64,000 bases of DNA from an uncultured Spirochaetota bacterium (GTDB lineage Bacteria > Spirochaetota > Brevinematia > Brevinematales > JAOACQ01): the NCBI GenBank assembly GCA_963768055.1, contig CAVYGN010000001.1:160001-224000 (forward strand). Direction: 5' to 3'. A model generated the notes under the pieces. It was given only the letters and a program-made list of their open reading frames with translations. It searched no databases and was not told the DNA's origin. A program made the translations under genes and the position numbers. The number at the start of each line of letters is the position of its first letter. Within the stretch, counting starts at the first letter, position 1. Below are positions 3,900 to 64,000 of the stretch, piece by piece.

Positions 3900-4193
3900 A
3901 TGATCAGCCAGAAATCAGGCCACATTGTTTTCGATGTTAAGGTCTTTCCCCGGAGCAGCAAAAATAAAGTTATTGTTTCGGGAGAAGATATCTCGGTGAA
4001 AATAAAATCTCCGCCAGCCGAAGGCCTTGCCAACAGGGAACTGATCCGTTTTTTTTCAGATCTTTTATCTATATCTCGGAAAAGCATATCCATTCTAAGA
4101 GGACTAAGCTCAAGAAATAAAGTTATTAAAGCCGAGGGCATTGACAGGGAAGATTTCCTTAATTTGCTGATTAAAAATATGGAAAAGCAATAA
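3900..4193 (+). CDS. DUF167/YggU-family protein
   Basis: VKV.PRSS, PP.EG.AN.ELI.F, I.RG..SR.K motifs; proC-yggT-yggU order. Confidence 0.85.
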   Translation: MISQKSGHIVFDVKVFPRSSKNKVIVSGEDISVKIKSPPAEGLANRELIRFFSDLLSISRKSISILRGLSSRNKVIKAEGIDREDFLNLLIKNMEKQ

Positions 4194-15960: not shown

Positions 15961-16048
15961 ACTAGTCCTATTCGTTGATTTTTTTACTTTTTTACCTTAC
16001 AATATTATATTTGAATATAGCTAAGGAAAGAGGGGTCGTTAAGTTTAA

Positions 16049-18079
16049 ATGAATTCAGATATTTTCTCGATTATTATAGATTATTCCATATTGCTTTTCC
16101 ATAAGTTCAACTTGTTCATCGTTAAAAAGAATTTTAAAGCCGATGCGAAGACCGCCGCGCAGTTAAAAAGCCAGGCATTTATAGTCCGCGAGCACTCAAT
16201 AAAGGAGATCAGGGGGACTATAGCCCGGTTTAATCCGTCGGCTGAGAAATTGACCTTCGAAGAAAAAAAAATAATACTTCTCCTGCTGGGGGCCAGCCTT
16301 TACGGCCAGAACGGCATAAATATATGGCAGGCTATGTGCTTTTTCCACAGGATACCGTTCCGGGCGATGAAGGCGGTCGGTCAAATCCTCGATCCTCATA
16401 GCGGCGTTTTGAAAAGCGGTATAATGATGTTTCAGGAAACGGATTTTCTCGGCGCTTCCCTGTCCATTGAGGAGATAGCGGAATTCTATAATAACAGGAA
16501 GGTTTTTCTTTCTCCCGTCGCGCTGAATTCACTCTTCAGCGACTTTACCGGGAAAAACCTTTACGGGGTAACCAACTATACTCTTTCAGAAAAATATAAG
16601 AATATCGATATTCTTCTTAACGACATATCGAGCATAATGAAATATCTGTTCTTTCTATCTAATTTTTACAAGGTAAATTCCGCCTATTCTTCCTCCCGGG
16701 ATGATATCTATGAGAACGGCGAATTTGCGGAGACTTTGAGAAAATTCAGGAAAAATATAATAAGTTCCGGATTGAAGATCAATTTGAAAAATTTTCTCAA
16801 AAAAAACAACTTTACCAATATTGAATTTATCGTACTTCTATATTTCATTTATAAAGTAGTCATCATGAAGGAATTCATGATAAACAGCGTGGAGGAGGTC
16901 CTTACCAGCCTCGCGTTCATCCCCTCGCAGATAAAGATGATACTCGGCTGTTTCAGCAGGGACAACGTGTTTTTAAGGGAAAAATTTATAGATGTCGCGG
17001 ATTTTTATCCGGGCATCCCCTTCGGCGACGGGCCCGATGAAGAAATTGAAAATGAAAAGCAGGATGAAGACGAATACCAGATTATCGGTTTTACCCAGGA
17101 ATACAATGCGATTTCCATATCGAAGGATAAGATATATTATCTACTCTTTTCCGAACAGGACGCTAAAAAGAAGAGGACCGGGGCGGATGATAAAAACAGG
17201 ATCAGGGACAAAAAGGAAAACGGGCCCGAATTCCAAAAAAACAGGGGCTTATTCGAACTCGTGGAGCCGGTTGTCAGGATAAGCGACGTAATTCTTGACG
17301 AAGATGTTAAGAAAGAACTTTTAGGCGCGGTTGACCTTGCAAAGGCTTCTGAAATGATGAAGAAGTGGGGGATCAAGCCGAACCTGGCTTCAAAGTCCTT
17401 CGGTTCCGTCAAGATACTGCTCTACGGGCCGTCCGGAACCGGGAAAACTATTACAGCGCAGGCCCTGGCGGGGGAGGTCGGCGCCGATCTTTTCAAAGTT
17501 GACGCAAGCAATCTTGTAAGCTCATGGGTTGGCGAAAGCACGAAAAACGTTAAAAAGGTTTTCAGGGAATTCTATAAATACGCTAAAATATCAAAGAGAA
17601 AAACATTTCTGTTCATGAATGAGGCTGACCAGCTTTTAAGCGCTCGCGGTACGATTACGCAAGCCGCCGATAAAGAGTATAACCAGATGCAGAACATACT
17701 CCTTGAGGAATTGGAAAATTTCGACGGGGTATTTCTTGCGACTACAAACCTGGCCGATCTCTTCGATACGGCATGGAACAGGAGATTTAATATTAAGATC
17801 AGGTTTGACGTGCCGAAATTTGAAACGCGATTAAAATTATGGAAAGTTCATATATCGGAAAAGATGCCGCTCGGCGATGATGTGAATTTCGAAAAACTTG
17901 CCGACTTTGAGCTTGCCGGTGGCTCTATCGCAAATGTGATCTACAATGCCGCAAGAAAAGCCGCCTTGAGGGACAACCTCGACAGAATAGTCAGGCAGAA
18001 AGATTTTATCGACGCGATACAAAACGAGCTTAAATCCCATCTCGGCATCAAAAACTCAAAGGTGGGTTTCTCTCAGTGA
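16049..18079 (+). CDS. AAA+ ATPase with a long N-terminal domain
   Basis: GPSGTGKT Walker A, FMNEAD Walker B variant, ATTN..D.A..RRF. Confidence 0.85.
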   Translation: MNSDIFSIIIDYSILLFHKFNLFIVKKNFKADAKTAAQLKSQAFIVREHSIKEIRGTIARFNPSAEKLTFEEKKIILLLLGASLYGQNGINIWQAMCFFHRIPFRAMKAVGQILDPHSGVLKSGIMMFQETDFLGASLSIEEIAEFYNNRKVFLSPVALNSLFSDFTGKNLYGVTNYTLSEKYKNIDILLNDISSIMKYLFFLSNFYKVNSAYSSSRDDIYENGEFAETLRKFRKNIISSGLKINLKNFLKKNNFTNIEFIVLLYFIYKVVIMKEFMINSVEEVLTSLAFIPSQIKMILGCFSRDNVFLREKFIDVADFYPGIPFGDGPDEEIENEKQDEDEYQIIGFTQEYNAISISKDKIYYLLFSEQDAKKKRTGADDKNRIRDKKENGPEFQKNRGLFELVEPVVRISDVILDEDVKKELLGAVDLAKASEMMKKWGIKPNLASKSFGSVKILLYGPSGTGKTITAQALAGEVGADLFKVDASNLVSSWVGESTKNVKKVFREFYKYAKISKRKTFLFMNEADQLLSARGTITQAADKEYNQMQNILLEELENFDGVFLATTNLADLFDTAWNRRFNIKIRFDVPKFETRLKLWKVHISEKMPLGDDVNFEKLADFELAGGSIANVIYNAARKAALRDNLDRIVRQKDFIDAIQNELKSHLGIKNSKVGFSQ

Positions 18080-18200
18080 AAATCCCGCAGACACGCCCTG
18101 GGTTTTTTGCGTTTTTTCCTCACCTTGAGCACAATATTTCCAAACGGAAATTATAAAAGTTTCTATCAGTTAACCAAAATCATTTTTAAGGAGCCGGGAA

Positions 18201-19949
18201 ATGTCTGAAAGAGAAAACTTTGTAGCAAAAAAGATCGAAAGCATGAGCTTGGCCGAAAAAGTGGGACAGCTCTTAACATTTACTTGGCGCGGCGCAATAC
18301 TAACACCGAGTTGTATCGAACAAATCACGAAATTAAATGCAGGCGGACTTTGTCTGGAACCGTACACACAGGAAACCTTCAAAAACCTTTACTGGGGGAA
18401 TTCCCAATACGATAAGACCTTTAAAAAACCTGCCGATTATTTCACGATCGCTCTTACTTATTTTGATCCTCACAATAACGGGATCAGTGTAACACCGGAA
18501 GAACTGACCGAGGCTCTGAATAAAGTACAGAAAATCGCTATGAACAGGCCTTCCGGGATTCCGCTGCACGTTACTATAGATTTTGAAGGTGATTTTAAAA
18601 ACGATTACACCTCGGGCGGGATAAGACAGTTTATCTCAAACATGGGACTCACAGCAATCGGTGATCCGGAGCTTACTTACAAGGTCGGCCTGACCATTGC
18701 TAGGCAATTGAGCGCTATCGGAGTGACGCAGATGTATTCCCCGGTATGCGATGTAAATATCAATCCTAAAAATCCCGAAATCGGCATCAGATCCTTCGGC
18801 GACGACCCGAAGAAGTGCGCGGAGCATGTAACCGCGATAGTAAAGGGTTACCAGGACGGCGGCATAGCAGCGACAGCGAAGCATTATCCCGGCAGAGGGG
18901 ATTCCGCGACAGACGCGCACGACGTGCTCGATCGCTGCAAGGGCGATAAAAAGAGAATGAATGAGGTCGAATTAGTTCCCTTTAAAGCCGCCATAGCGGC
19001 AGGAACGAAGGCAGTTATGACCGCGCATACCGTATATCCGGCTTATGATGAAGAATACCCTGCCACCTTATCAAGGAAAATTCTCACCGACCTCTTGAAG
19101 GGTGAATTGGGATTTAATGGTGTAATAGTTTCGGACGCGATCGGCATGGCCGCCATTCTCAAGAAATGGCCGCTTCCCAGGGCCTGCGTAATGGCTATAA
19201 AAGCGGGCGTGGATACGATTCTTTTAAAGGCGGACGATGAATCTCGCGTGCAATGTTTTTTCGGAATCAAGATGGCGGTAGAGTCCGGCGAGATACCGAT
19301 GGAAAGGCTAAATGATGCGGTAAGACGTCTCCTTATCATGAAATACGACCAGGGCTTATTTGAAAAAGCAGGCAAAGGGGATCCGAAAAAAACCAGTTCC
19401 ATAGCGAGAAGCAAGGAAGTCATCGATTTTTCGTGGGAAGTAGCGGGAAAGGCCCTTCTGGTCATTCGCGATGATAAAAAGATATTGCCGCTTAAGAAAG
19501 AAAAGAAAATACTTGTTATCGAGCAGTGTATCCCCTACGAATTCCTCGGCAAGGATATGTACAGCCATCCCCACATGTTTTGCGAGGCCATGACCGCTCA
19601 ATACTCAAACCTGATTCTGGATGATACGCAATTCCATGCCACAGATGAAGATGTTGCCGAAGCCCTGGAACTCGCAAAGCAGGCGGACCTGGTAGTCATG
19701 ACCAATTATTTCGCACGCATCGAGAAAAGGGGAAACAACCAGCATCTGGTTAAAAAATTAAAAGAAGCAGGACATACGGTAGTTGTCGTGACCAACTATC
19801 CGTATATTGAAGGAACCACTAAAGAGGCAGATGCGGTAGTCTGCAATTTCAGCGCTTCACCCGATTCGATAAGGATCTCTGCGGATCTCCTTTTCGGAAC
19901 GGTCAAAACTTCACCTTCAACCAAAATGCCCATAAGGATAGGTGTTTAA
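18201..19949 (+). CDS. Glycoside hydrolase family 3 (beta-N-acetylhexosaminidase-like)
   Basis: D.EG, IGIRSFG, KHYPGRG....DAH, MTAH, VSDAIGM. Confidence 0.88.
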   Translation: MSERENFVAKKIESMSLAEKVGQLLTFTWRGAILTPSCIEQITKLNAGGLCLEPYTQETFKNLYWGNSQYDKTFKKPADYFTIALTYFDPHNNGISVTPEELTEALNKVQKIAMNRPSGIPLHVTIDFEGDFKNDYTSGGIRQFISNMGLTAIGDPELTYKVGLTIARQLSAIGVTQMYSPVCDVNINPKNPEIGIRSFGDDPKKCAEHVTAIVKGYQDGGIAATAKHYPGRGDSATDAHDVLDRCKGDKKRMNEVELVPFKAAIAAGTKAVMTAHTVYPAYDEEYPATLSRKILTDLLKGELGFNGVIVSDAIGMAAILKKWPLPRACVMAIKAGVDTILLKADDESRVQCFFGIKMAVESGEIPMERLNDAVRRLLIMKYDQGLFEKAGKGDPKKTSSIARSKEVIDFSWEVAGKALLVIRDDKKILPLKKEKKILVIEQCIPYEFLGKDMYSHPHMFCEAMTAQYSNLILDDTQFHATDEDVAEALELAKQADLVVMTNYFARIEKRGNNQHLVKKLKEAGHTVVVVTNYPYIEGTTKEADAVVCNFSASPDSIRISADLLFGTVKTSPSTKMPIRIGV

Positions 19950-56402: not shown

Positions 56403-57629
56403 ATGGGTTCCAATTTCAAATTTGCCTTAAGAAACGTTTTCAGGAACAGCCGCAGGTCTTTATTGACTGCGACCTCGATTTTCACTGCGGCGGTTATCGT
56501 CGCGCTTCTGATCGGCGTTTTAAACGGATTCCTGGATAATATCGACAATAACTATATCGATTACCAGACGGGTAATCTCAAAATAACCTCGCAGGATTAT
56601 ATCAATGATGAAAAGTTCCTGCCTGTCGATGACACCATGGCCGGCACGGAAGGGCTTATATCGAATATAAAAACTGTTCCCGGAGTCGACGCAGTCGAGC
56701 AGAGGATAAGGTTCGGCATTCTTCTGGGCAATGACCAGGACACCGTCCAGGCTTTCGGGATCGGAGCCGACCTTGACAGCCCCCGGCTCGACCTCTCGGA
56801 CAAGCTGGTAACCCCCTTGCAGGGTAAACCCGGCAGGATCGAGAAAGAGGGACTGTACCTTGGATATGAACTGGCAGCCAGGCTTCATCTGAAGCCCGGA
56901 GACGAGATACTTATCGCCACGAAGACTACGACGGGAGGCCTTAACGGCATCAAGGCCCGTGTAAAAGGACTTTTAAGCTTCGGCGTAGGGGTTTTTGACC
57001 GCAAGTTTTTCTACCTTGACCTGCCGAACGCGAGAAAATTATTGAAAATGCAGGGTCTCGATACGGAGATTCTGATCTTTACAAAGAGAGGATATTCAAT
57101 ATCAGCGGTAGAGGGAAAAATAACCCCCTTTATACCGAAAGACGATTCGATCAGGAACATCGGGGACCAGATTGGCGGCCTTTATTATCTTCTTGAAAGC
57201 GCGAGATATATCTATTACTTCTTCGACCTTCTTGTCATACTTCTAGCCTCCTTTGTCATAATAACCACAATGATGCAGGCCGTTTTTGAAAGGATGCGTG
57301 AAATAGGCACGTTGAAGGCAATGGGTATGACCGACAGGCAGATATTTGCAAGTTTTACGCTGGAGGGAGCGATTATAGGAATTATCGGTGCGCTTCCGGG
57401 AGGAATACTGGGGTATATTTTAGTACTGTGGCTCTCTGTAACCGGATTAGATTTCAAATCGACGTCCAATATGGACCTGCCGTTTAGCTTTATAATCCGC
57501 CCTTACATAGGGATAGAAGTTCTTATACTCTCGGTAATCATGGCCGTTGTCATGTCAAGCATTGCCGCTATGATACCCGCCAGGAGCGCCGGGCGCCTTA
57601 TGCCTGCCGAGGCCCTGAGAAAGCTTTGA
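56403..57629 (+). CDS. ABC transporter permease (LolE/FtsX-like), start revised to ATG at 56403
   Basis: AAGGAGG RBS; ALRN..RN.RRS.LT, ERMREIGTLKAMG. Confidence 0.88.
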   Translation: MGSNFKFALRNVFRNSRRSLLTATSIFTAAVIVALLIGVLNGFLDNIDNNYIDYQTGNLKITSQDYINDEKFLPVDDTMAGTEGLISNIKTVPGVDAVEQRIRFGILLGNDQDTVQAFGIGADLDSPRLDLSDKLVTPLQGKPGRIEKEGLYLGYELAARLHLKPGDEILIATKTTTGGLNGIKARVKGLLSFGVGVFDRKFFYLDLPNARKLLKMQGLDTEILIFTKRGYSISAVEGKITPFIPKDDSIRNIGDQIGGLYYLLESARYIYYFFDLLVILLASFVIITTMMQAVFERMREIGTLKAMGMTDRQIFASFTLEGAIIGIIGALPGGILGYILVLWLSVTGLDFKSTSNMDLPFSFIIRPYIGIEVLILSVIMAVVMSSIAAMIPARSAGRLMPAEALRKL

Positions 57630-59972
57630 CAGGTCATTCACCAGTGAATCCGGTATTTTTTGACGAATATTAAAAATGCCTTCCCAGGGGTCTTTTTTGA
57701 TTTTTTTCAAACGACCGTCGATATTCTGCACAGTAAATTGGTCAAATCTTAAATCTCCGGTCAATTCTTTCCAGTGAAGGGGCATTGAAACAGGTGCGTT
57801 TTTTCTCGCCCTGGCGGCATACGGAGCCGCCCATGTCGCTCCCGGAGTATTCCGGAAAAAATCGATAAATATTTTCCCGTTCCTGACAGATTTCGACATC
57901 GTGGCCGTTAGAAAATCCGGCCATTTTTCCACGAATTTATCGGCGATATAATGAGAAATATCCTTGATATCATTCCATCCAAGCGTTCGTTCTATCGGAA
58001 CGACAAGATGAAGGCCTTTTCCGCCGGTGGTTTTCACAAAGCTTTCAAGCCCGTACTGCCGCAGAAGTTCCCTGAAATTCAGGGCGGCGGCCGTGACAAA
58101 TTCGGGCTTGATATCGGGAGCCGGGTCAAGGTCGAAAACCATCCTGTCCGGTTTATCCCGATGTCCGGCCGTAATATCCATAATATGAAATTCGACGACC
58201 CCGAGCTGAACCAGGGACAGCAGCGAATTAACATCGTTAATAGTGATATAAAATTTAAAAGTATCTTTTTTCTGGAGCTGAAAAGTTTTAACGGTGTCCG
58301 GGAGCCCTTCCATCGGGTGCTTTTGAAAAAAGCATTGGTCTATGTTTTCCGTACAGCGGACAAGCACAAGCGGGCGGTCCGCGATATGGGGAAGCATCAG
58401 TTCCGCGATTTTTTCATAATAAAGAATAAGCTCGAGTTTGGTAATGTCCGGATCTTTAAAAATTATCTTATCGGGGTGTGAAATTGAAACCCCGGAAATA
58501 ACAGGAGATTTAATCTTACTTTCAGGTTTTTCAAGCACAACATCCGAAGGCCTTTTATCCTCCCTTAAACCCAGGAAAGAGGCATGCCGGAGCAGTAAAT
58601 CCGATGTCATATTCATGAAAGCCACCTCGGCTATCAGTTCGGGTCTGACCCAGACGGCTTCATCCATGCTTTTCATATTATAAAAAGGGGAACCCGGGAT
58701 CTTTAACGGATTTAATTTTTTAAAAATGGAATCCAATGCCCTGCTGTTAAAACCGGTCCCCACTTTGCCGCAATAAATAAGGTTTCCCTGACGATAAAAC
58801 CCGAGGAGCAGGGCGCTGAATTCGGACCGGCTTCCCCGGGGCTTTGTAAATCCCCCTATTACAAATTCCTGGCGTTTCAGGCATTTGATTTTGATCCAGC
58901 TGTTAGCCCGCTTTTCTTCATAAACACTTGTTATGTCTTTAGCCATGATGCCTTCCAGGGAAAGGCGGCAGGCGTTTTGTAAAATTTCCCCGACAGGGCC
59001 CTGACCGGCAAGGTGGCCGCTTAAAATCAAAGGCCCATTGTTATTATTTGCCAGGATCCGTTCAAGCAATCTTTTTCTTTCAGCCAGGGGGGCTTTTTTT
59101 ATATCATAACCGTTATAGTAGATAATATCGAAAATTATATATTGAAGCCTGTCATCCCTCCCGTCGCTTAGATCGCTTTGAAGCAGTTCGAAACTGCTGA
59201 CCCCCTTTTCATCAGGGGCTATTATTTCACCGTCGAGAATGCCGCTTTCGATCGGAAGATCCAGGCAGGACTGTGCGACGTTTTTAAATTTATCCGTCCA
59301 GTCGTACCCGTTTCTTGTGACAAGCTTTACTTTTCCATGATCTATATAACTCATAATGCGGTAGCCGTCATACTTGATCTCATAAATCCAGGAATCCCCC
59401 GCGGGTGGCTTTTCATTCGCGGCTGCCAGTTGAGGTTTGACTAAAGCGGGCATTGGCGATTTTAAGGCTTTTCCGGTTTTCAATATGTCAATATCGGATT
59501 CGGGATCATCGCTGTCTTTGATCAGGAGCCAATCTTTTTCATTATTTTTCATCCTGACAAGGGTCCATTTACCATTGAGTTTTTTTCCCTGCAGAATGAA
59601 TTTAATAGTACCGTCCTTATATGCGTTCAACGGATCTTTTTCCAGGGGCTTCCATTTTCCTTTGTCCCATATGGTAACTTTACCGGCCCCGTATTCTCCC
59701 TTGGGGATATCGCCCTCGAAGCCGGCGTACTCAAGCGGATGGTCTTCCACATTTACGGCAAGCCTTTTCTCGGATGGAACAAGGCTTGGGCCTTTGGGGA
59801 CGGCCCAGCTTTTAAGGACTCCGCCCATTTCCAGACGCAGGTCGTAATGAAGCCTCCGGGCCGAATGCTTATGAACTACAAAACGGTTTTTTTCATCCGG
59901 CCTTATATTATTTCCACGGGGCTCCGACGTCCTTGAAAACGCCCTTTTTTTTCTATAATCTGATAGAGCCAT
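57555..59972 (-). CDS. ligD: NHEJ DNA ligase D (phosphoesterase, ligase and polymerase domains)
   Basis: H.ARRLHYDLRLE...LKSWAVPKGPS, EIKYDGYR, FDLDP, KTTGGKGLH. Confidence 0.95.
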   Translation of the reverse strand: MALSDYRKKRAFSRTSEPRGNNIRPDEKNRFVVHKHSARRLHYDLRLEMGGVLKSWAVPKGPSLVPSEKRLAVNVEDHPLEYAGFEGDIPKGEYGAGKVTIWDKGKWKPLEKDPLNAYKDGTIKFILQGKKLNGKWTLVRMKNNEKDWLLIKDSDDPESDIDILKTGKALKSPMPALVKPQLAAANEKPPAGDSWIYEIKYDGYRIMSYIDHGKVKLVTRNGYDWTDKFKNVAQSCLDLPIESGILDGEIIAPDEKGVSSFELLQSDLSDGRDDRLQYIIFDIIYYNGYDIKKAPLAERKRLLERILANNNNGPLILSGHLAGQGPVGEILQNACRLSLEGIMAKDITSVYEEKRANSWIKIKCLKRQEFVIGGFTKPRGSRSEFSALLLGFYRQGNLIYCGKVGTGFNSRALDSIFKKLNPLKIPGSPFYNMKSMDEAVWVRPELIAEVAFMNMTSDLLLRHASFLGLREDKRPSDVVLEKPESKIKSPVISGVSISHPDKIIFKDPDITKLELILYYEKIAELMLPHIADRPLVLVRCTENIDQCFFQKHPMEGLPDTVKTFQLQKKDTFKFYITINDVNSLLSLVQLGVVEFHIMDITAGHRDKPDRMVFDLDPAPDIKPEFVTAAALNFRELLRQYGLESFVKTTGGKGLHLVVPIERTLGWNDIKDISHYIADKFVEKWPDFLTATMSKSVRNGKIFIDFFRNTPGATWAAPYAARARKNAPVSMPLHWKELTGDLRFDQFTVQNIDGRLKKIKKDPWEGIFNIRQKIPDSLVNDLSKLSQGLGRHKAPGAPGGYHSGNA

Positions 59973-60058: not shown

Positions 60059-60889
60059 TTAAGCTATTTTCTTGTGGTTTTTAACGTTTTTTCCGCTCAT
60101 TTCCCGCTGTTTGACGCTTTTCTGCAGAATCTCCATGAAATCACTGTACCTTGCAAAAGCCACAGCTTTTGGAGCCTTTATTACTGCGTCCGGCTGCTTT
60201 ATTTTTTTGTCGATCAATTCAAAGAGTTTCTCGGAATATTCATCATTGTATTTTTCGGGCTGCCAGGCGCCGCTCATCATTTCAATAAGTTTGCCGGCTA
60301 TATTCATTTCACTTTCAGTTATTTTATATTTTGAAGGGGGTTCCCCCGGGAATTCAAATTCGCTCAGTTCTTTGATCTCATTTTTGAACAATAATAAATC
60401 CAGGGCCAGCGCGTTTCCCACCGGCATGATAACGCTTAAATATTGCCTTTTACTTATGACAACTTTGGCAATTCCGGCTTTATGGGTTTTTTTCAAAATT
60501 TCCCTTAGAAGTACGTATCCCTTTTCATCCTTTTTTTCGCTCACCAGATAGTACGGTTTATGGTAGAAGAGCGTATTAATATCGCCGAGTTCCACGAACT
60601 CTTCAATGTTAATAATCTGATTGGCTTCAACGGCGGCCTTTTCAAAATCCTCATCGCTCATGATAACATATTTATCTTTTTCATATTCATAGCCCTTAAC
60701 GATGTCAGCCCAGGGAACCTCTTCGCCTGTTTCTTCATTGACCCTCAGGTTTTTAACCCGCTTATTATTTTTCCTGTCAATGAAATGAAAACTTGGACCG
60801 GCATTCGATTCGTTTATCGCAGTAAAAAGAGTGACGGGTATACTGACAAGCCCGAAAGTGATATAGCCTTTCCAGATTGGATGTGTCAT
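60059..60889 (-). CDS. ku: NHEJ Ku protein (start revised to ATG at 60889)
   Basis: IWKG.I.FGLV.IPV.L, IVKGYE, KPYYL; AGGAGG RBS; upstream of ligD. Confidence 0.95.
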   Translation of the reverse strand: MTHPIWKGYITFGLVSIPVTLFTAINESNAGPSFHFIDRKNNKRVKNLRVNEETGEEVPWADIVKGYEYEKDKYVIMSDEDFEKAAVEANQIINIEEFVELGDINTLFYHKPYYLVSEKKDEKGYVLLREILKKTHKAGIAKVVISKRQYLSVIMPVGNALALDLLLFKNEIKELSEFEFPGEPPSKYKITESEMNIAGKLIEMMSGAWQPEKYNDEYSEKLFELIDKKIKQPDAVIKAPKAVAFARYSDFMEILQKSVKQREMSGKNVKNHKKIA

Positions 60890-61020
60890 GACGAGCCTCC
60901 TTTTAAAGCTAATTAAATAAGCTGTATTAGTCAATTCGAAGGGGGCTTATTGAATTCGGCAGGGCTGTTCTGCAATAATGCAAGCATAATAATTAAAATA
61001 CAAAAAAGCGCTTCATGGTA

Positions 61021-61049
61021 TTGACAATCAAAAATCTTTGTGATAAAAT
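61021..61049 (+). promoter_or_regulatory. sigma70 promoter of the putative RiPP operon
   Basis: TTGACA, 17 nt, TGa-TAAAAT. Confidence 0.7.
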
Positions 61050-61151
61050 AACTTTACCTTAATAAATCAATCTTTAATGGCTTGTTATTTAATACTCTGA
61101 AAAAGTTAACCTGTTAAAATAAGATGATTTCAAAAGAGAAAAGGACTGCAT

Positions 61152-61418
61152 GTGAGTTATCAAATTGCGAAGAATATCTCGTATAGGGCTCTTGACGATA
61201 GTGTCGTCGTTTTAAACCTTAAAAGCGGTTATTATTATATCCTCAATACAACCTCAAGCTGTATATGGGACTCTCTTTTCGCAAAAAAGATGGATATTGC
61301 AGGTACGCTTGATAACCTTGCCGGTTTATATTCTGATATTAAACGGGAAACCCTGGAAAAGGATGTGAGTGAGGAAATTAATTACTGGATTAAAGAAAAA
61401 CTGATTTTAGCCTCATAA
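61152..61418 (+). CDS. Stand-alone PqqD-family RiPP recognition element (RRE)
   Basis: 88 aa; VVLNL..G.YY.LN.T...IW..L....L...Y......L.KDV...I..W....LI pattern. Confidence 0.85.
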   Translation: MSYQIAKNISYRALDDSVVVLNLKSGYYYILNTTSSCIWDSLFAKKMDIAGTLDNLAGLYSDIKRETLEKDVSEEINYWIKEKLILAS

Positions 61419-61445
61419 AACAAATTCTGTTAAAGGGGGATACAT

Positions 61446-61595
61446 ATGCAGAAAACCGAAGAAAAAGCCCTGAAAACTTTGTCTTATGTTAAGCCGAAGA
61501 CAAAGAAGCACAAACCCGTCGACATAGTTAAGGGATCGGGTTCGTTATATTATTACAGTCTTTATTACACTTACTACTACTACTATTATTATTGA
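61446..61595 (+). CDS. Putative RiPP precursor with a poly-tyrosine core (49 aa, not in the ORF track)
   Basis: AAGGGGGA RBS; MQKTEEKALKTLSYVKPKTKKHKPVDIVKGSGSLYYYSLYYTYYYYYYY*; lies between the RRE and radical SAM genes. Confidence 0.85.
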   Translation: MQKTEEKALKTLSYVKPKTKKHKPVDIVKGSGSLYYYSLYYTYYYYYYY

Positions 61596-61625
61596 TCTTT
61601 TTCTTTCCGCCTAGTAACTGAGCAT

Positions 61626-63035
61626 ATGAACTTGCATATGATCGATACCATCCTTAAAAATGAGAGAGGAGGGTCTTCGTTCTTCAATGTGGCTCTGATA
61701 GAGCTCCTTGGCGGAATTTCAGGCGATCCGTATAATAGTAAGGGTTGGGATTGTTTTTTAACGAATTTGCTTAGGGGAAAAATTCGCCCCGATTCAAGAG
61801 AAGTGAGGCGGTTTTTCCCCTTTTTATCAGTTAACGTAACCCCCATTCATGGAGATGTTTCGGACAGTCATGAGATAGATAGTTATGCTTACCTTTATGA
61901 GCGTGAAAGCCTGTTCTTAAAGAAGCTTGAAGGATTTCTTATCGGTAACAAATCCGAAATAAAAGAATACTCCAAATCTCTCGGTTCGATTTTTATTCTC
62001 AGGGATGAAATTCGCGGAATATTGAGCCGGATAATTGATAATGACAAACTTTCTGTCTTTTTTAGGGATAAGGGGGCTATAAAGGGCAAAAAACAGATAA
62101 CCTTTGTGCCTACGTTCAGATGTCCGATGAAGTGTTCATATTGTGTGAATAAGGATATTACCTTTAAGGATATGAGTTACAGACATTTTACCTCAGCACT
62201 GAGGTGGCTTGACAATAATGGATGCGATATCGTGAGTTTCAGCGGGGGTGAACCGACCTCGCATGAACGTTTCAGCGAAATGATATTATCGTTATCCGAA
62301 AAGTACGAGATACATTTTGCGACAAACCTCATGTTTGGGCCCGGCGTAAGGAATGTGTTGTATAATGAAAGCGTTACCTCGCTTACCGTTCATATGCCGG
62401 GTCCGGGGGAACAATCGAGGGAACAGAGGGAGCTTTTCATCGATAATCTCAGGGCTTTTAAATTACAGAAAAAGAAAATGAGGTTCAGGTATAATATATC
62501 GAGGTTCGAGGATGAAAAAACCTGGGAACCTCTTTTAACATTTGTTAAAAGCATGGGGCATAATATAATCAATTTCGCCCTTACGGTGCCAGGGCGCAGC
62601 CGGACAAATGAATTTGTAAACACGGGGGAGCTGAATAAAATGGGAGGAGTCGCGAAAAATTTCATAGAATACTCCGGAATAAGAAATGTGAAGGTAAATA
62701 TTTCAAAGCCTATACCTCCATGCTGCATTTCAGACGAGAAAGACCCCATAGATATTTATCCGACGATTTGCAATATATATAAGGAGGATTACACTATAAA
62801 TACCACCATCCTTCCGGATTTAAGCGTATCGCCATGCTTTGCTGTAATGAAAAAGTTCAAAATGCTGACTGATTATAAAGACTGGGACGGTATCAGGAAA
62901 GATGTAAAACCTTATGTCACAAGTCTTATTCAAAAGCCGCTGCTTGACAAATGCGGGAAGTGTTACCTGTTTATGAGGGGAATTTGCATGGGCGGATGCC
63001 TCGGCTATAAAACAGACGGCGGGTATGATGCTTGA
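61626..63035 (+). CDS. Radical SAM/SPASM-domain protein with an N-terminal extension
   Basis: CPMKCSYC, SGGEP, C-terminal PPCC..C..PC..CGKC...ICMGGC. Confidence 0.88.
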   Translation: MNLHMIDTILKNERGGSSFFNVALIELLGGISGDPYNSKGWDCFLTNLLRGKIRPDSREVRRFFPFLSVNVTPIHGDVSDSHEIDSYAYLYERESLFLKKLEGFLIGNKSEIKEYSKSLGSIFILRDEIRGILSRIIDNDKLSVFFRDKGAIKGKKQITFVPTFRCPMKCSYCVNKDITFKDMSYRHFTSALRWLDNNGCDIVSFSGGEPTSHERFSEMILSLSEKYEIHFATNLMFGPGVRNVLYNESVTSLTVHMPGPGEQSREQRELFIDNLRAFKLQKKKMRFRYNISRFEDEKTWEPLLTFVKSMGHNIINFALTVPGRSRTNEFVNTGELNKMGGVAKNFIEYSGIRNVKVNISKPIPPCCISDEKDPIDIYPTICNIYKEDYTINTTILPDLSVSPCFAVMKKFKMLTDYKDWDGIRKDVKPYVTSLIQKPLLDKCGKCYLFMRGICMGGCLGYKTDGGYDA

Positions 63036-64000
63036 CATTGGCGACATATTCAGGACATTTGCCGGGCGTGTTCAGAAACTCAAAAATTTATTATTTTTTG
63101 CACCAAGCTCGATCATCATAGAGCCGACCAATGCATGCAATCTGTCATGCAGGATTTGCGCCGCCTCTGAAATGCTCGTAAGGAATGACTCCGGCAGGGG
63201 ATTTATGGATTATAAACTCTTTGAGGAAATATTAAAAAAAATAAAAAGGCCCGATCAAAAAATACATCTGTATTTCAGGGGGGAACCGCTTCTTCATCCG
63301 GAAATAATCTCTTTTATCGCTGAAAGCTCCCGGCATGGTTTTTTTACCACCATTTCGACAAATTCGCTTTTGATGAATGAAGAAATGTGTGAAAGGCTTA
63401 TATCCTCGGGCCTGGACAGGCTTCAGATAAATTATGACAATATCCTGGAAGAGGATTACCCGATGATCCGGGGCATCGATGAAGCGGACACTGTCCTGAG
63501 GAACATAATGATGATCCAGGAGATGAAAACTAAACTGCATAGCGAGAAGCCTGAACTCATTATTAAGGCTGTAAACCCGGGGCATAAACCGGGCATGATA
63601 AGAAAGTACATGGAATTTCTTAAACTTAAAGGGATAAAAGGCAAAGCATGCATTACCGGCTATTTTGTCTGGCCCGGAACTTTGCCCCTCGATGAATTTG
63701 AAATAAACTGGCTGCCCGCGCCGAGGGTCTGCCCCATTTTTAACCAGGGAGCGGCGGTCACTTTCGATGGCAGGGTCCTGGCCTGCAGCTATGATTACAT
63801 GGAGGCCAGCTTTATCGGGAATATCCTGGATTTTAAATCTTTAAACAGCGTTTACAGTGATCCGGGCTATAAAAATTTCAGGAAAAAGATATTATTAAAG
63901 AAATACAATGAGCTTGCCCCATGTAAAAGCTGTTTAATGCCTATGACCCCTATAGCATATAAGGAATTCGAACTGGGAGGCTTAGATAAACCGGATGCCT
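63025..64000 (+). CDS. Second radical SAM protein (SPASM/twitch tail); runs off the window edge, not in the ORF track
   Basis: MMLDIG...EPTNACNLSCRIC, FRGEP, CPIF...DG.VLACSYD...GN...CKSC; start overlaps the upstream stop; no stop seen before 64000. Confidence 0.85.
   Translation, partial: MMLDIGDIFRTFAGRVQKLKNLLFFAPSSIIIEPTNACNLSCRICAASEMLVRNDSGRGFMDYKLFEEILKKIKRPDQKIHLYFRGEPLLHPEIISFIAESSRHGFFTTISTNSLLMNEEMCERLISSGLDRLQINYDNILEEDYPMIRGIDEADTVLRNIMMIQEMKTKLHSEKPELIIKAVNPGHKPGMIRKYMEFLKLKGIKGKACITGYFVWPGTLPLDEFEINWLPAPRVCPIFNQGAAVTFDGRVLACSYDYMEASFIGNILDFKSLNSVYSDPGYKNFRKKILLKKYNELAPCKSCLMPMTPIAYKEFELGGLDKPDA

Follow-up and report, generated by a model that had tools for sequence, protein, structure and literature searches.

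A candidate radical SAM RiPP family with tyrosine-repeat precursors and lasso-type leader handling, found through an operon of an uncultured Spirochaetota bacterium

Background

What is made of a short peptide whose C-terminal part consists almost entirely of tyrosine, when its gene stands between those of a PqqD-like protein and of radical S-adenosylmethionine (SAM) enzymes? The question is raised by a locus at the end of a 64,000-nucleotide stretch of DNA (the window) from an uncultured Spirochaetota bacterium, corresponding to positions 160001-224000 of contig CAVYGN010000001.1 (assembly GCA_963768055.1). The initial annotation of the window proposed that a 49-amino acid open reading frame (ORF) encodes the precursor of a ribosomally synthesized peptide with post-translational modifications (RiPP), served by a RiPP recognition element (RRE) of the PqqD type and by two radical SAM (rSAM) enzymes. 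The locus indeed exhibits the generic design of rSAM RiPPs, namely a short precursor beside a PqqD-type RRE and rSAM enzymes with the CxxxCxxC motif and auxiliary cysteines, with the Pfam models PqqD, Radical_SAM and SPASM above their cut-offs. The rSAM RiPP reading is thereby upheld and the count of enzymes is not, as the cluster comprises, judging from its motifs, five catalytically plausible rSAMs and two Fe-S proteins that lack the SAM-cluster motif. Taken as a whole, the operon is in our opinion likely to direct the synthesis of a heavily modified, exported RiPP that belongs to a family without a curated model. Below we describe the evidence from the precursor, its neighbours and their distribution, and weigh the alternatives.

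Results

The precursor peptide and its relatives

The ORF is found where it had first been placed (61446-61595), preceded by the purine-rich ribosome-binding site AAAGGGGGA; it encodes MQKTEEKALKTLSYVKPKTKKHKPVDIVKGSGSLYYYSLYYTYYYYYYY and occurs as a called protein (P0152) in the protein collection. Its core, GSLYYYSLYYTYYYYYYY, contains SLYY twice, along with a stretch of seven tyrosines, and is free of Cys, of the dipeptide YG and of Asp/Glu, as the initial annotation had it. Since the tyrosine codons are mixed (7 TAT and 6 TAC), the ORF is not a simple DNA repeat. A search with this single sequence among 5.8 billion protein clusters returned two relatives, encoded on tiny contigs, with leaders of the form ...Y[VI]KPxT[KQ]KHKPVDIVKGSG and Tyr-rich cores, and a profile derived from five precursors retrieved 72 proteins at an expectation (E) value of 1 or lower among 2517 candidates, all of which, inspected one by one, carry the same combination of a leader and an LYY-containing core. 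With 71 relatives sharing a conserved leader, the 49-residue ORF is a real gene, far beyond what chance would produce.

The Lys-rich leader of the 72-member family follows the consensus YxKPxTKKH.....[IV]V[KQ]GS, with the lasso-type YxxP motif present in 69 of the 72, and an alignment of 67 sequences shows conservation of 90% or more, up to invariance, at Y14, P17, H22, V28, G30 and S31. The cores are built of LYY repeats spaced by two residues, most often TS, which gives the consensus (T/S)(S/T)LYY. Leader and core were separated by a script that failed to split P0157 and split P0184 wrongly, which leaves 71 sequences in the core counts; these cores consist of 42.4% Y, 16.3% L, 12.9% S and 11.5% T, contain TSLYY 87 times in total and 1 to 7 [ST]L[YH] units each, and terminate in YYYY in 23 cases and in YYYH in 20. 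Cysteine appears in 19 of the 71 cores as split by the script (with P0184 wrongly split), mostly in the linker immediately before the repeats. The window peptide occupies the Tyr-richest edge of the family. The original view of a core that is almost all tyrosine and fits no class is therefore correct in that no family cut-off is reached, but the core turns out to be the extreme end of a (T/S)(S/T)LYY family.

One family member, P0156, shares a 16,687-bp contig with P0002, the sole close homologue (51% identity) of the first rSAM enzyme of the operon, rSAM-1. Metagenome scans for this 16.7-kb contig with P0002 and P0156 gave no match, and the ESM Atlas contained no usable match for a precursor. 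An aberrant form was observed in a metagenome-assembled genome (MAG) of Nitrospiraceae (L013, 9932-10354, plus strand), where the precursor homologue is a 140-residue ORF with the usual leader and five LYY units, followed by about 80 additional residues starting with CWVAREVYG; this extra part matches the CFI-box-CTERM model far below the cut-off (E of 0.037, 13.8 bits versus 40). Possible explanations are a fusion, a frameshift in the MAG sequence or another form of the product.

Gene neighbourhoods in nine loci

Context is available for nine loci: that of the source genome, one in a Nitrospiraceae MAG (L015), one in an Elusimicrobiota MAG (L017) and six in Bacteroidales MAGs. The DNA pattern of the leader identified a single locus among 185,579 species genomes, in the Nitrospiraceae MAG, and an alignment of rSAM-3 orthologues led to the Elusimicrobiota MAG, two of the 14 loci returned being orthologous. 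A DNA scan with the core motif gave at least 120 loci; among the matches listed, 117 of 126 ORF rows were low-complexity artefacts, and at least nine loci were real, all of them in Bacteroidales MAGs (Tannerella, Prevotella, Prevotellaceae, Muribaculaceae, Ca. Limisoma and one unclassified), six with usable flanks. The relaxed leader pattern returned 26 loci, including 24 chance matches in genes of FtsX-type permeases, Ffh and other proteins. Apparently by coincidence, a leader-like segment, K-x-K-P-[VI]-D-I-V-K-G, is also part of a loop conserved in many FtsX/MacB-type permeases (KFKPIDIVKGSF), and Ffh/SRP54 contains it too (KQKPVDIVKGA; loci L030-L054).

In both L015 and L017 we found ten collinear enzyme orthologues, 28-60% identical by tblastn (rSAM-2, rSAM-3, the 260-residue protein, rSAM-4, the ATP-binding cassette (ABC) exporter, the B2-like protease, the B12-binding rSAM, the 302-residue protein, the NTP_transf_5 protein and the HprK-like kinase), and in both the PqqD gene adjoins a Tyr-rich ORF with the same leader; an orthologue of rSAM-1 is absent from these two MAGs. 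The six Bacteroidales loci contain PqqD, the precursor, rSAM-2-, rSAM-3- and rSAM-4-like enzymes, the HprK-like and NTP_transf_5 proteins and, in four of the six, an rSAM-1-like enzyme. Overall, PqqD, the three enzymes similar to rSAM-2, rSAM-3 and rSAM-4, the HprK-like kinase and the NTP_transf_5 protein are each present in 9/9 loci, the ABC exporter in 7/9 and the rSAM-1-like enzyme (about 455 residues, 24-27% identical) in 5/9; the 260-residue protein, the B12-rSAM and the 302-residue protein are found in 3/9, a subgroup distinguished by the leader motif KPVDIVKG. The initial annotation had suggested scanning homologous loci for short Tyr-rich ORFs, and such an ORF adjoins the PqqD gene in all nine, including L017, which was found via rSAM-3 and in which the Tyr-rich ORF was located afterwards. 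L017 is the sole independent test of the linkage between peptide and enzymes.

The arrangement of these genes differs in detail. In L017 (19600-20400, minus strand) PqqD and the precursor form a convergent unit of their own, with a TTGACA, 17 nt, TATACT site before PqqD and a strong hairpin after the precursor stop codon, unlike in the window genome, where the two genes head the enzyme operon. In L015 alone (16000-18780), a DUF2079 membrane protein and a family-2 glycosyltransferase are encoded between the HprK-like kinase and PqqD, and could provide additional tailoring or export functions. Two Bacteroidales clusters lie beside a gene for a polyprenyl glycosylphosphotransferase of the polysaccharide type or for a CHU_C/T9SS-signal protein (L079, 15452-16096, and L069, 1591-3036), which recalls the polysaccharide loci around the clusters of linear polyphosphorylated peptides (LPPs; PMC13381572).

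Predicted leader recognition by the PqqD-like protein

The PqqD-like gene was correctly recognized at the outset: its product matches Pfam PF05402 with 38.5 bits (E of 1.5e-9, cut-off 23.4), and is 43% and 54% identical to the Nitrospiraceae and Elusimicrobiota copies, respectively. The NCBIfam model lasso_PqqD_Bac gives 31.1 bits, below its cut-off of 80. A model of the complex between PqqD and the leader scored 0.70, compared to 0.02 for the best of three controls, a mark attained by 116 of 157 solved complexes and by 2 of 215 mismatched pairs; the three runs share 93% or more of the contacts, and the partner has a predicted local distance difference test (pLDDT) value of at least 60. The predicted contacts join leader residues 11-24 (KTLSYVKPKTKKHK) to PqqD residues 25-35 and 58-82. 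Solved RRE-leader complexes of similar systems exist, among them those of lasso and LPP systems (PMC13381572), and because of this the result may indicate likeness and not binding.

These data bear on the most trivial explanation of the locus, according to which the 49-residue ORF is a chance or low-complexity artefact and the rSAM enzymes act elsewhere. Tyr-rich in-frame repeats do arise easily from DNA repeats, as the artefacts of the core-motif scan demonstrate. Yet the non-repetitive leader is conserved in 72 proteins, the position beside PqqD is kept in every locus, the tyrosine codons are mixed, a ribosome-binding site is present and the predicted RRE contact falls on conserved leader residues; we regard this explanation as refuted by the comparative data.

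The radical SAM enzymes and the related Fe-S proteins

The CxxxCxxC motif is kept in rSAM-1 to rSAM-4 and in the B12-rSAM. In rSAM-1, C164/C168/C171 and five C-terminal cysteines are invariant among 32 aligned sequences. The gene had been described as encoding an rSAM/SPASM enzyme, of which the rSAM part was borne out; Pfam detects SPASM not in this protein but in rSAM-2, and the C-terminal Cys pattern of rSAM-1 is SPASM-like by alignment and fold only. The structural model of rSAM-1, computed from the same 32 sequences (pLDDT 90.3), starts with a domain of about 145 residues that folds entirely into helices and, as modelled, is no winged-helix RRE; an rSAM barrel comes next, and the C-terminal domain is rich in Cys. 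In rSAM-2, the CxxxCxxC motif at residue 38 is accompanied by four more invariant cysteines, while rSAM-3 and rSAM-4 are paralogues with CxxxCxxC and eight further invariant cysteines, i.e. the full SPASM pattern (18 sequences). The 260-residue protein has the same eight cysteines as rSAM-3 and rSAM-4 and lacks the SAM-cluster motif; it gave no NCBIfam match at E of 1e-3 or lower, and its resemblance to the SPASM-only protein of the GeoRSP system by language-model features (0.95, ESM Atlas) is a lead only. The 302-residue protein likewise lacks the SAM-cluster motif and keeps six C-terminal cysteines. The B12-rSAM has its best sub-threshold matches among C-methyltransferases, i.e. the KedN5 family (95 bits) and a RiPP C-methyltransferase (72.7 bits).

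In fold comparisons the best matches in the PDB were SuiB (TMq 0.51), anSME, CteB, SkfB and ChlB for rSAM-1, and SuiB (TMq 0.67), SkfB, CteB, anSME and TigE for rSAM-3 (model pLDDT 85.7). All of them are peptide- or protein-modifying SPASM/twitch enzymes, and since the sequence identity is as low as 14-19%, the reaction cannot be read from these matches. A sequence search of the PDB revealed no match for rSAM-1 and, as the best match of both rSAM-2 and rSAM-3, GDGT-MAS (E of about 3e-7), hence no close solved relative. An exhaustive search with rSAM-1 found 260 matches at E of 1e-10 or lower, and because the Bacteroidales rSAM-1-like proteins match representatives of this set at 47-74% identity, part of it belongs to the system described here. 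A scan of genome contigs with an rSAM-1 pattern matched 55 stretches and no relative, and among 60 relatives the best non-self match had an E of 4e-7 with 21-40% identity over a part of the protein, with no orthologue even in the same genus. Compared with NCBIfam models of cofactor enzymes, with which the initial annotation allowed that they might group, and of known RiPP maturases, none of the rSAMs reaches a cut-off.

One alternative suggested by these enzymes is a linear product, in which the rSAM/SPASM enzymes epimerize residues in the manner of YydG, EpeE and PoyD and the B12-rSAM adds methyl groups, to yield a methylated and phosphorylated Tyr-rich peptide of alternating D and L residues. 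EpeE is among the structural matches, albeit further down the list (TM 0.31-0.34), epimerization by rSAM enzymes is an established reaction of RiPP biosynthesis (PMC9266682), and a B12-rSAM with methyltransferase-like matches is at hand. Against this, the best-ranking folds are cross-linking or oxidizing SPASM enzymes (SuiB, CteB, SkfB, anSME), rSAM-3 and rSAM-4 retain the full eight-Cys SPASM pattern, and three to four distinct rSAM/SPASM enzymes would seem excessive if a unit of four residue types were to be epimerized and nothing else. We therefore consider a purely linear, epimerized product improbable.

Putative protease, kinase, nucleotidyltransferase and exporter

The remaining genes of the cluster recall those of paeninodin-type lasso peptides and of LPPs (PMC13381572), which also combine a discrete PqqD-type RRE reading a YxxP leader, an HprK-like Ser kinase, an NTP_transf_5 protein and an MsbA-like exporter. 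The NTP_transf_5 protein of the source genome scores 97.1 bits, above the cut-off, and the HprK-like kinase gives a sub-threshold match to HprK_rel_B (38.6 bits, cut-off 200). At the cluster edge, all nine loci encode a small B2-like protein (90-218 residues), in one of them supported by tblastn alone; a Cys and a Gly-His-x-Trp motif are invariant in the eight aligned copies (that of L017 was left out), and a Cys protease of the B2 type is likewise common to this cluster and lasso clusters. In known systems, HprK-like kinases phosphorylate a Ser of paeninodin-type and LPP precursors (PMC9266682, PMC13381572): PadeK and PsmK act on Ser, to whose phosphate PsmN, of the nucleotidyltransferase type, adds a hexose (PMC9266682), and LppK polyphosphorylates Ser3 of the LPP core, LppN having been inactive in the heterologous host (PMC13381572).

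The set of a B1-like PqqD, a B2-like protease, an HprK-like kinase, an NTP_transf_5 protein and an MsbA-like exporter is in fact that of paeninodin-type clusters (PMC13381572), and together with the YxxP leader it could be taken for a degenerate or atypical lasso cluster whose cyclase is encoded elsewhere. We find this barely credible. No Asn-synthetase-like cyclase is encoded among the 13 genes here or in the other eight loci, the window core offers no Asp/Glu for ring closure (in lasso peptides at core position 7-9), the lasso models are missed by both PqqD (lasso_PqqD_Bac) and the protease (lasso_biosyn_B2, 22.5 bits versus 33), and rSAM genes form the conserved centre of every locus.

Organization of the operon and its surroundings

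The cluster had been thought to be cut by the window edge, with any protease, exporter or tailoring genes out of sight, and all of these are present downstream. A 20-kb region (L002) was cut to read past the edge, its position 3995 being position 63995 of the window. As nine more tightly packed genes on the same strand were found there, the operon amounts to 13 genes and about 12.4 kb on a single strand, with overlapping or abutting ends (from 61021 of the window to 13415 of L002), of which about 9.4 kb lie past the window end (Table 1). The predicted overlap of the second rSAM gene with the first is real (11 nt, the start of rSAM-2 lying inside the end of rSAM-1), and its supposed long extension beyond the window is not; given the position of its stop codon, rSAM-2 is contained essentially whole within the window.

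Table 1. Features of the tyrosine-repeat RiPP operon; coordinates are those of the window unless L002 is indicated
Feature	Coordinates	Strand	Basis or remark
Sigma-70-type promoter-like site	61021..61049	+	TTGACA, 17 nt, TAAAAT, TG before -10 (extended -10)
PqqD-like RRE, lasso-B1-like, 88 aa	61152..61418	+	Pfam PF05402
Shine-Dalgarno-like purine run AAAGGGGGA	61432..61440	+	read from the sequence; 6 nt before ATG
Precursor, leader part (residues 1-31), MQKTEEKALKTLSYVKPKTKKHKPVDIVKGS	61446..61538	+	boundary inferred from the end of conservation
Precursor, core part (residues 32-49), GSLYYYSLYYTYYYYYYY, plus stop codon	61539..61595	+	sequence
rSAM-1, 469 aa	61626..63035	+	Pfam Radical_SAM 36.4 bits; CPMKCSYC
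rSAM-2, 325 aa	63025..64000, stop codon 64000-64002	+	Pfam Radical_SAM 69.2 and SPASM 30.3 bits
rSAM-3, 317 aa	L002 3995-4948; first two codons at window 63995..64000	+	
SPASM-only protein, 260 aa	L002 4923-5705	+	
rSAM-4, 319 aa	L002 5725-6684	+	
MsbA-like ABC exporter, 584 aa	L002 6665-8419	+	
B2-like protease, 164 aa	L002 8409-8903	+	weak lasso-B2 match
B12-binding rSAM, 481 aa	L002 8900-10345	+	
rSAM-like protein without CxxxCxxC, 302 aa	L002 10338-11246	+	partial Radical_SAM match
NTP_transf_5 protein, 390 aa	L002 11212-12384	+	
HprK-like (HprK-related P-loop) kinase, 344 aa	L002 12381-13415	+	

A promoter upstream of the cluster, as claimed initially, finds its counterpart in a promoter-like site with a score of 11/12, which ties for the top among 44 sites in 13.6 kb (L002 800-14400) and is the top one on the plus strand. 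It is a consensus match only, and such sites barely exceed the expectation from shuffled sequences in this region (44 versus 32.4 +/- 5.9). A search of sequencing runs listed no RNA run, and DNA runs covered at most 0.41 of the sampled words.

The operon is flanked by a divergent Ku/LigD pair and, at its 3' end, by a convergent gene for an HD-domain protein. The former consists of a three-domain LigD (phosphoesterase, ligase and primase-polymerase; 57555-59972, minus strand) and of Ku (60059-60934, minus strand), a bacterial non-homologous end joining pair located directly upstream of the cluster; the latter encodes a 246-residue HD_5/HD protein of the HD-GYP-like type (L002 13412-14152, minus strand), whose stop region overlaps by 4 nt with that of the last cluster gene.

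Distribution

The precursor profile matched three of the 401 genomes sampled from the source phylum, namely the source genome, an unequivocal member with ABC and HprK-like genes at its flanks (G334) and a borderline case (G225, E of 5e-4), and none of four same-genus and eleven same-family genomes. In the order of L079, one of 401 sampled genomes matched, that of L079 itself. The family is thus rare and patchily distributed across at least four phyla. The notion of a horizontally acquired island gains no support from composition, the GC content of the cluster (42.5%) being similar to that of the window (42.3%) and of 12.4-kb windows in general (mean 41.9 +/- 1.6%); the patchy spread over phyla still suggests transfer.

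A sporadic occurrence of this kind also speaks against a pathway of the cofactor type, in which the Tyr repeats would be cross-linked and excised to release several small redox-active molecules per peptide, as a cofactor would be tied to its dependent enzymes. The design of such pathways is similar, in that for pyrroloquinoline quinone (PQQ; PqqA/D/E) and mycofactocin (MftA/B/C) a PqqD-type chaperone and rSAM/SPASM enzymes modify a Tyr in a small peptide, and the 260-residue protein resembles the GeoRSP SPASM-only protein. Nevertheless, the matches to PqqE and MftC are weak, within 25-38 bits, and miss the cut-offs widely (25-38.5 bits versus 381 for PqqE and 25-31 versus 265 for MftC), which excludes membership in either family. 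Moreover, the repeat number varies from 1 to 7, the B2-like protein is the only candidate in the cluster for an excising peptidase, and the ABC exporter, the kinase, the nucleotidyltransferase-like protein and the lasso-type protease indicate a secreted, tailored peptide, in contrast to PQQ and mycofactocin. We rate the cofactor pathway as very unlikely.

Discussion

Relation to known RiPP systems

Triceptide and darobactin enzymes act on aromatic residues, and spliceases of the PlpX type are defined by the splice motif YG. We know of no description of a family like the one presented here. Beyond generic domains, no Pfam or NCBIfam family model fits the cluster, and the possibility that the family had been described before, raised at the outset, finds no confirmation in the searched literature (subscription-only papers being outside its scope), which offered no account of a tyrosine-repeat rSAM RiPP system and no match for a tyrosine-rich RiPP, or for SLYY, together with radical SAM. 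Among the matches listed on radical SAM precursor peptides the term poly-tyrosine is absent, among those for radical SAM and PqqD HprK is absent, and no paper among the matches listed joins lasso peptides, radical SAM, HPr kinase and nucleotidyltransferase. The available text of a RiPP-mining study of Bacteroidales (PMC10352776) mentions neither such peptides, nor PqqD-HprK sets, nor tyrosine.

Among the closest known systems are the paeninodin-type lasso and LPP clusters, whose accessory set is the one found here, minus the cyclase. Unlike them, the present system lacks a lasso cyclase as well as the SpI-type peptidase that is a hallmark of LPPs, has three to five rSAMs as its conserved centre, and acts on a core of Tyr/Leu/Ser/Thr repeats. 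LPPs are defined by a signal peptidase I of the archaeal type (LppS) as the leader peptidase (PMC13381572), the cluster genes revealed no S26/SpI domain, and of the LPP motif the leader here has the YxxP part alone. Similar combinations are otherwise known from systems that exist as NCBIfam/TIGRFAM models only: SynChlorMet (ScmC/D/E/F), with PqqD-like and HprK-like proteins and two rSAM/SPASM enzymes, and GeoRSP, with PqqD, an rSAM/SPASM enzyme and a SPASM-only protein. Membership in either was rejected on the basis of the scores (ScmF 27-34 bits versus 400, ScmD 27 versus 100, GeoRSP_rSAM 23.9 versus 400; TIGR04248-04251, TIGR04302-04304).

With SuiB/StrB, the triceptide 3-CyFEs, DarE/DynA, WgkB and RrrB, the enzymes described here share the SPASM architecture and would share the action on a leader-bound substrate with aromatic residues; they differ in the Tyr-rich pentapeptide repeats of that substrate and in the constant presence of several paralogous enzymes side by side. 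The KxxxW/StrB, WgkB, DynA and GggB models are matched with 20-40 bits against cut-offs of 450-650, so that the likeness to SuiB is one of fold and not of family. Sactipeptides and ranthipeptides were discarded, the window core being devoid of Cys and the PapB, StsB and SkfB models giving 19-39 bits versus 300-625; likewise the spliceases, in view of the missing YG in the window core and of the absence of a splicease model among the NCBIfam matches listed. The best reading of these comparisons is that the system joins the leader-handling and phospho-decoration module of lasso peptides and LPPs with maturases of the radical SPASM type.

A possible pathway

The biochemical steps that such a pathway would involve are our inference from the parts of the cluster, their conservation and their co-occurrence. 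PqqD would bind residues 11-24 of the leader, with the YxKP motif, and offer the core to rSAM-2, rSAM-3 and rSAM-4, and to rSAM-1 where present, and these rSAM/SPASM enzymes would act on it iteratively, one round for each repeat. We regard as most likely the abstraction of a hydrogen atom followed by the formation of C-C or C-O cross-links between Tyr side chains and neighbouring residues, with epimerization as the main alternative; the constant pairing of two full-SPASM paralogues with a pentapeptide unit that holds two Tyr, one Leu and two residues with hydroxyl groups suggests that each unit receives at least two different radical modifications. In the subfamily to which the window belongs, the B12-rSAM probably adds methyl groups and the two Fe-S proteins without the SAM cluster (SPASM-only) probably act as helpers. 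If the pathways of paeninodin, pseudomycoidin and LPP are a guide, the target of the kinase would be a Ser, the candidates being the near-invariant S31, which ends the leader, or the Ser/Thr of the repeats, and the NTP_transf_5 protein could then decorate the phosphate. Finally, cleavage of the leader would fall to the B2-like protease and export of the product to the MsbA-like ABC transporter.

A bolder version of this pathway can be formulated, in which the three or four rSAM/SPASM enzymes weld the Tyr rings of each (T/S)(S/T)LYY unit into a continuous ladder of cross-links, so that a rigid poly-aryl rod, phosphorylated and decorated, is exported as the product of a new RiPP class. We put it forward tentatively and regard it as rather unlikely in this full form; if true, the ladder would be a type of chemistry not yet described, and in anoxic sediments or guts such a rod could serve as an antibiotic or as a redox-active, electron-shuttling molecule.

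Several observations weigh against the broader view of a heavily modified, exported RiPP, or at least against parts of it. The co-occurrence of peptide and enzymes is partly a matter of construction, as the peptide itself led to seven of the nine loci, and the gene set varies, with rSAM-1 missing from four of nine loci, the ABC exporter from two, and the B12-rSAM and the two SPASM-only proteins confined to three. No rSAM attains any NCBIfam cut-off (the best score of rSAM-2 is 105.5 bits versus 380, those of the others are 37-48 bits), for which reason homology cannot name the reaction, and the cross-linking or epimerization chemistry is wholly inferred. The protease is an uncertain element: in the source genome it stays below the cut-off of NF033537 (lasso_biosyn_B2), the Pfam model Transglut_core3 barely reaches its cut-off in two loci, one of them L079, and Pfam assigns no family to five of the six Bacteroidales copies. 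Lasso B2 enzymes require a Thr at leader position -2 (PMC10368454), and the only conserved Thr of the leader described here, T19, is situated 12 residues before the leader end. Lastly, the score of the PqqD-leader model may reflect a memory of the solved lasso and LPP complexes.

Conclusions

The best reading of the locus is that it represents a new, rare, multi-phylum family of rSAM RiPPs with lasso-type handling of the leader and without a lasso cyclase. If this is right, an uncharacterized RiPP family has been found whose substrate, with 42% Tyr arranged in pentapeptide repeats, is unlike any described, and which always involves at least three rSAM/SPASM enzymes that match no curated family. 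The module for leader handling and phospho-decoration known from lasso peptides (B1, B2, HprK-like, NTP_transf_5 and ABC proteins) would have been co-opted for radical chemistry where lasso clusters employ the cyclase, and the modular view of RiPP evolution presented for LPPs (Popov et al. 2026, PMC13381572) would be extended accordingly. From a minimal version in Bacteroidales, such as the L079-type cluster with fewer enzymes and a 39-residue precursor, to the 13-gene version of the spirochaete, the pairs of precursors and enzymes could then serve in the search for new radical reactions on tyrosine.

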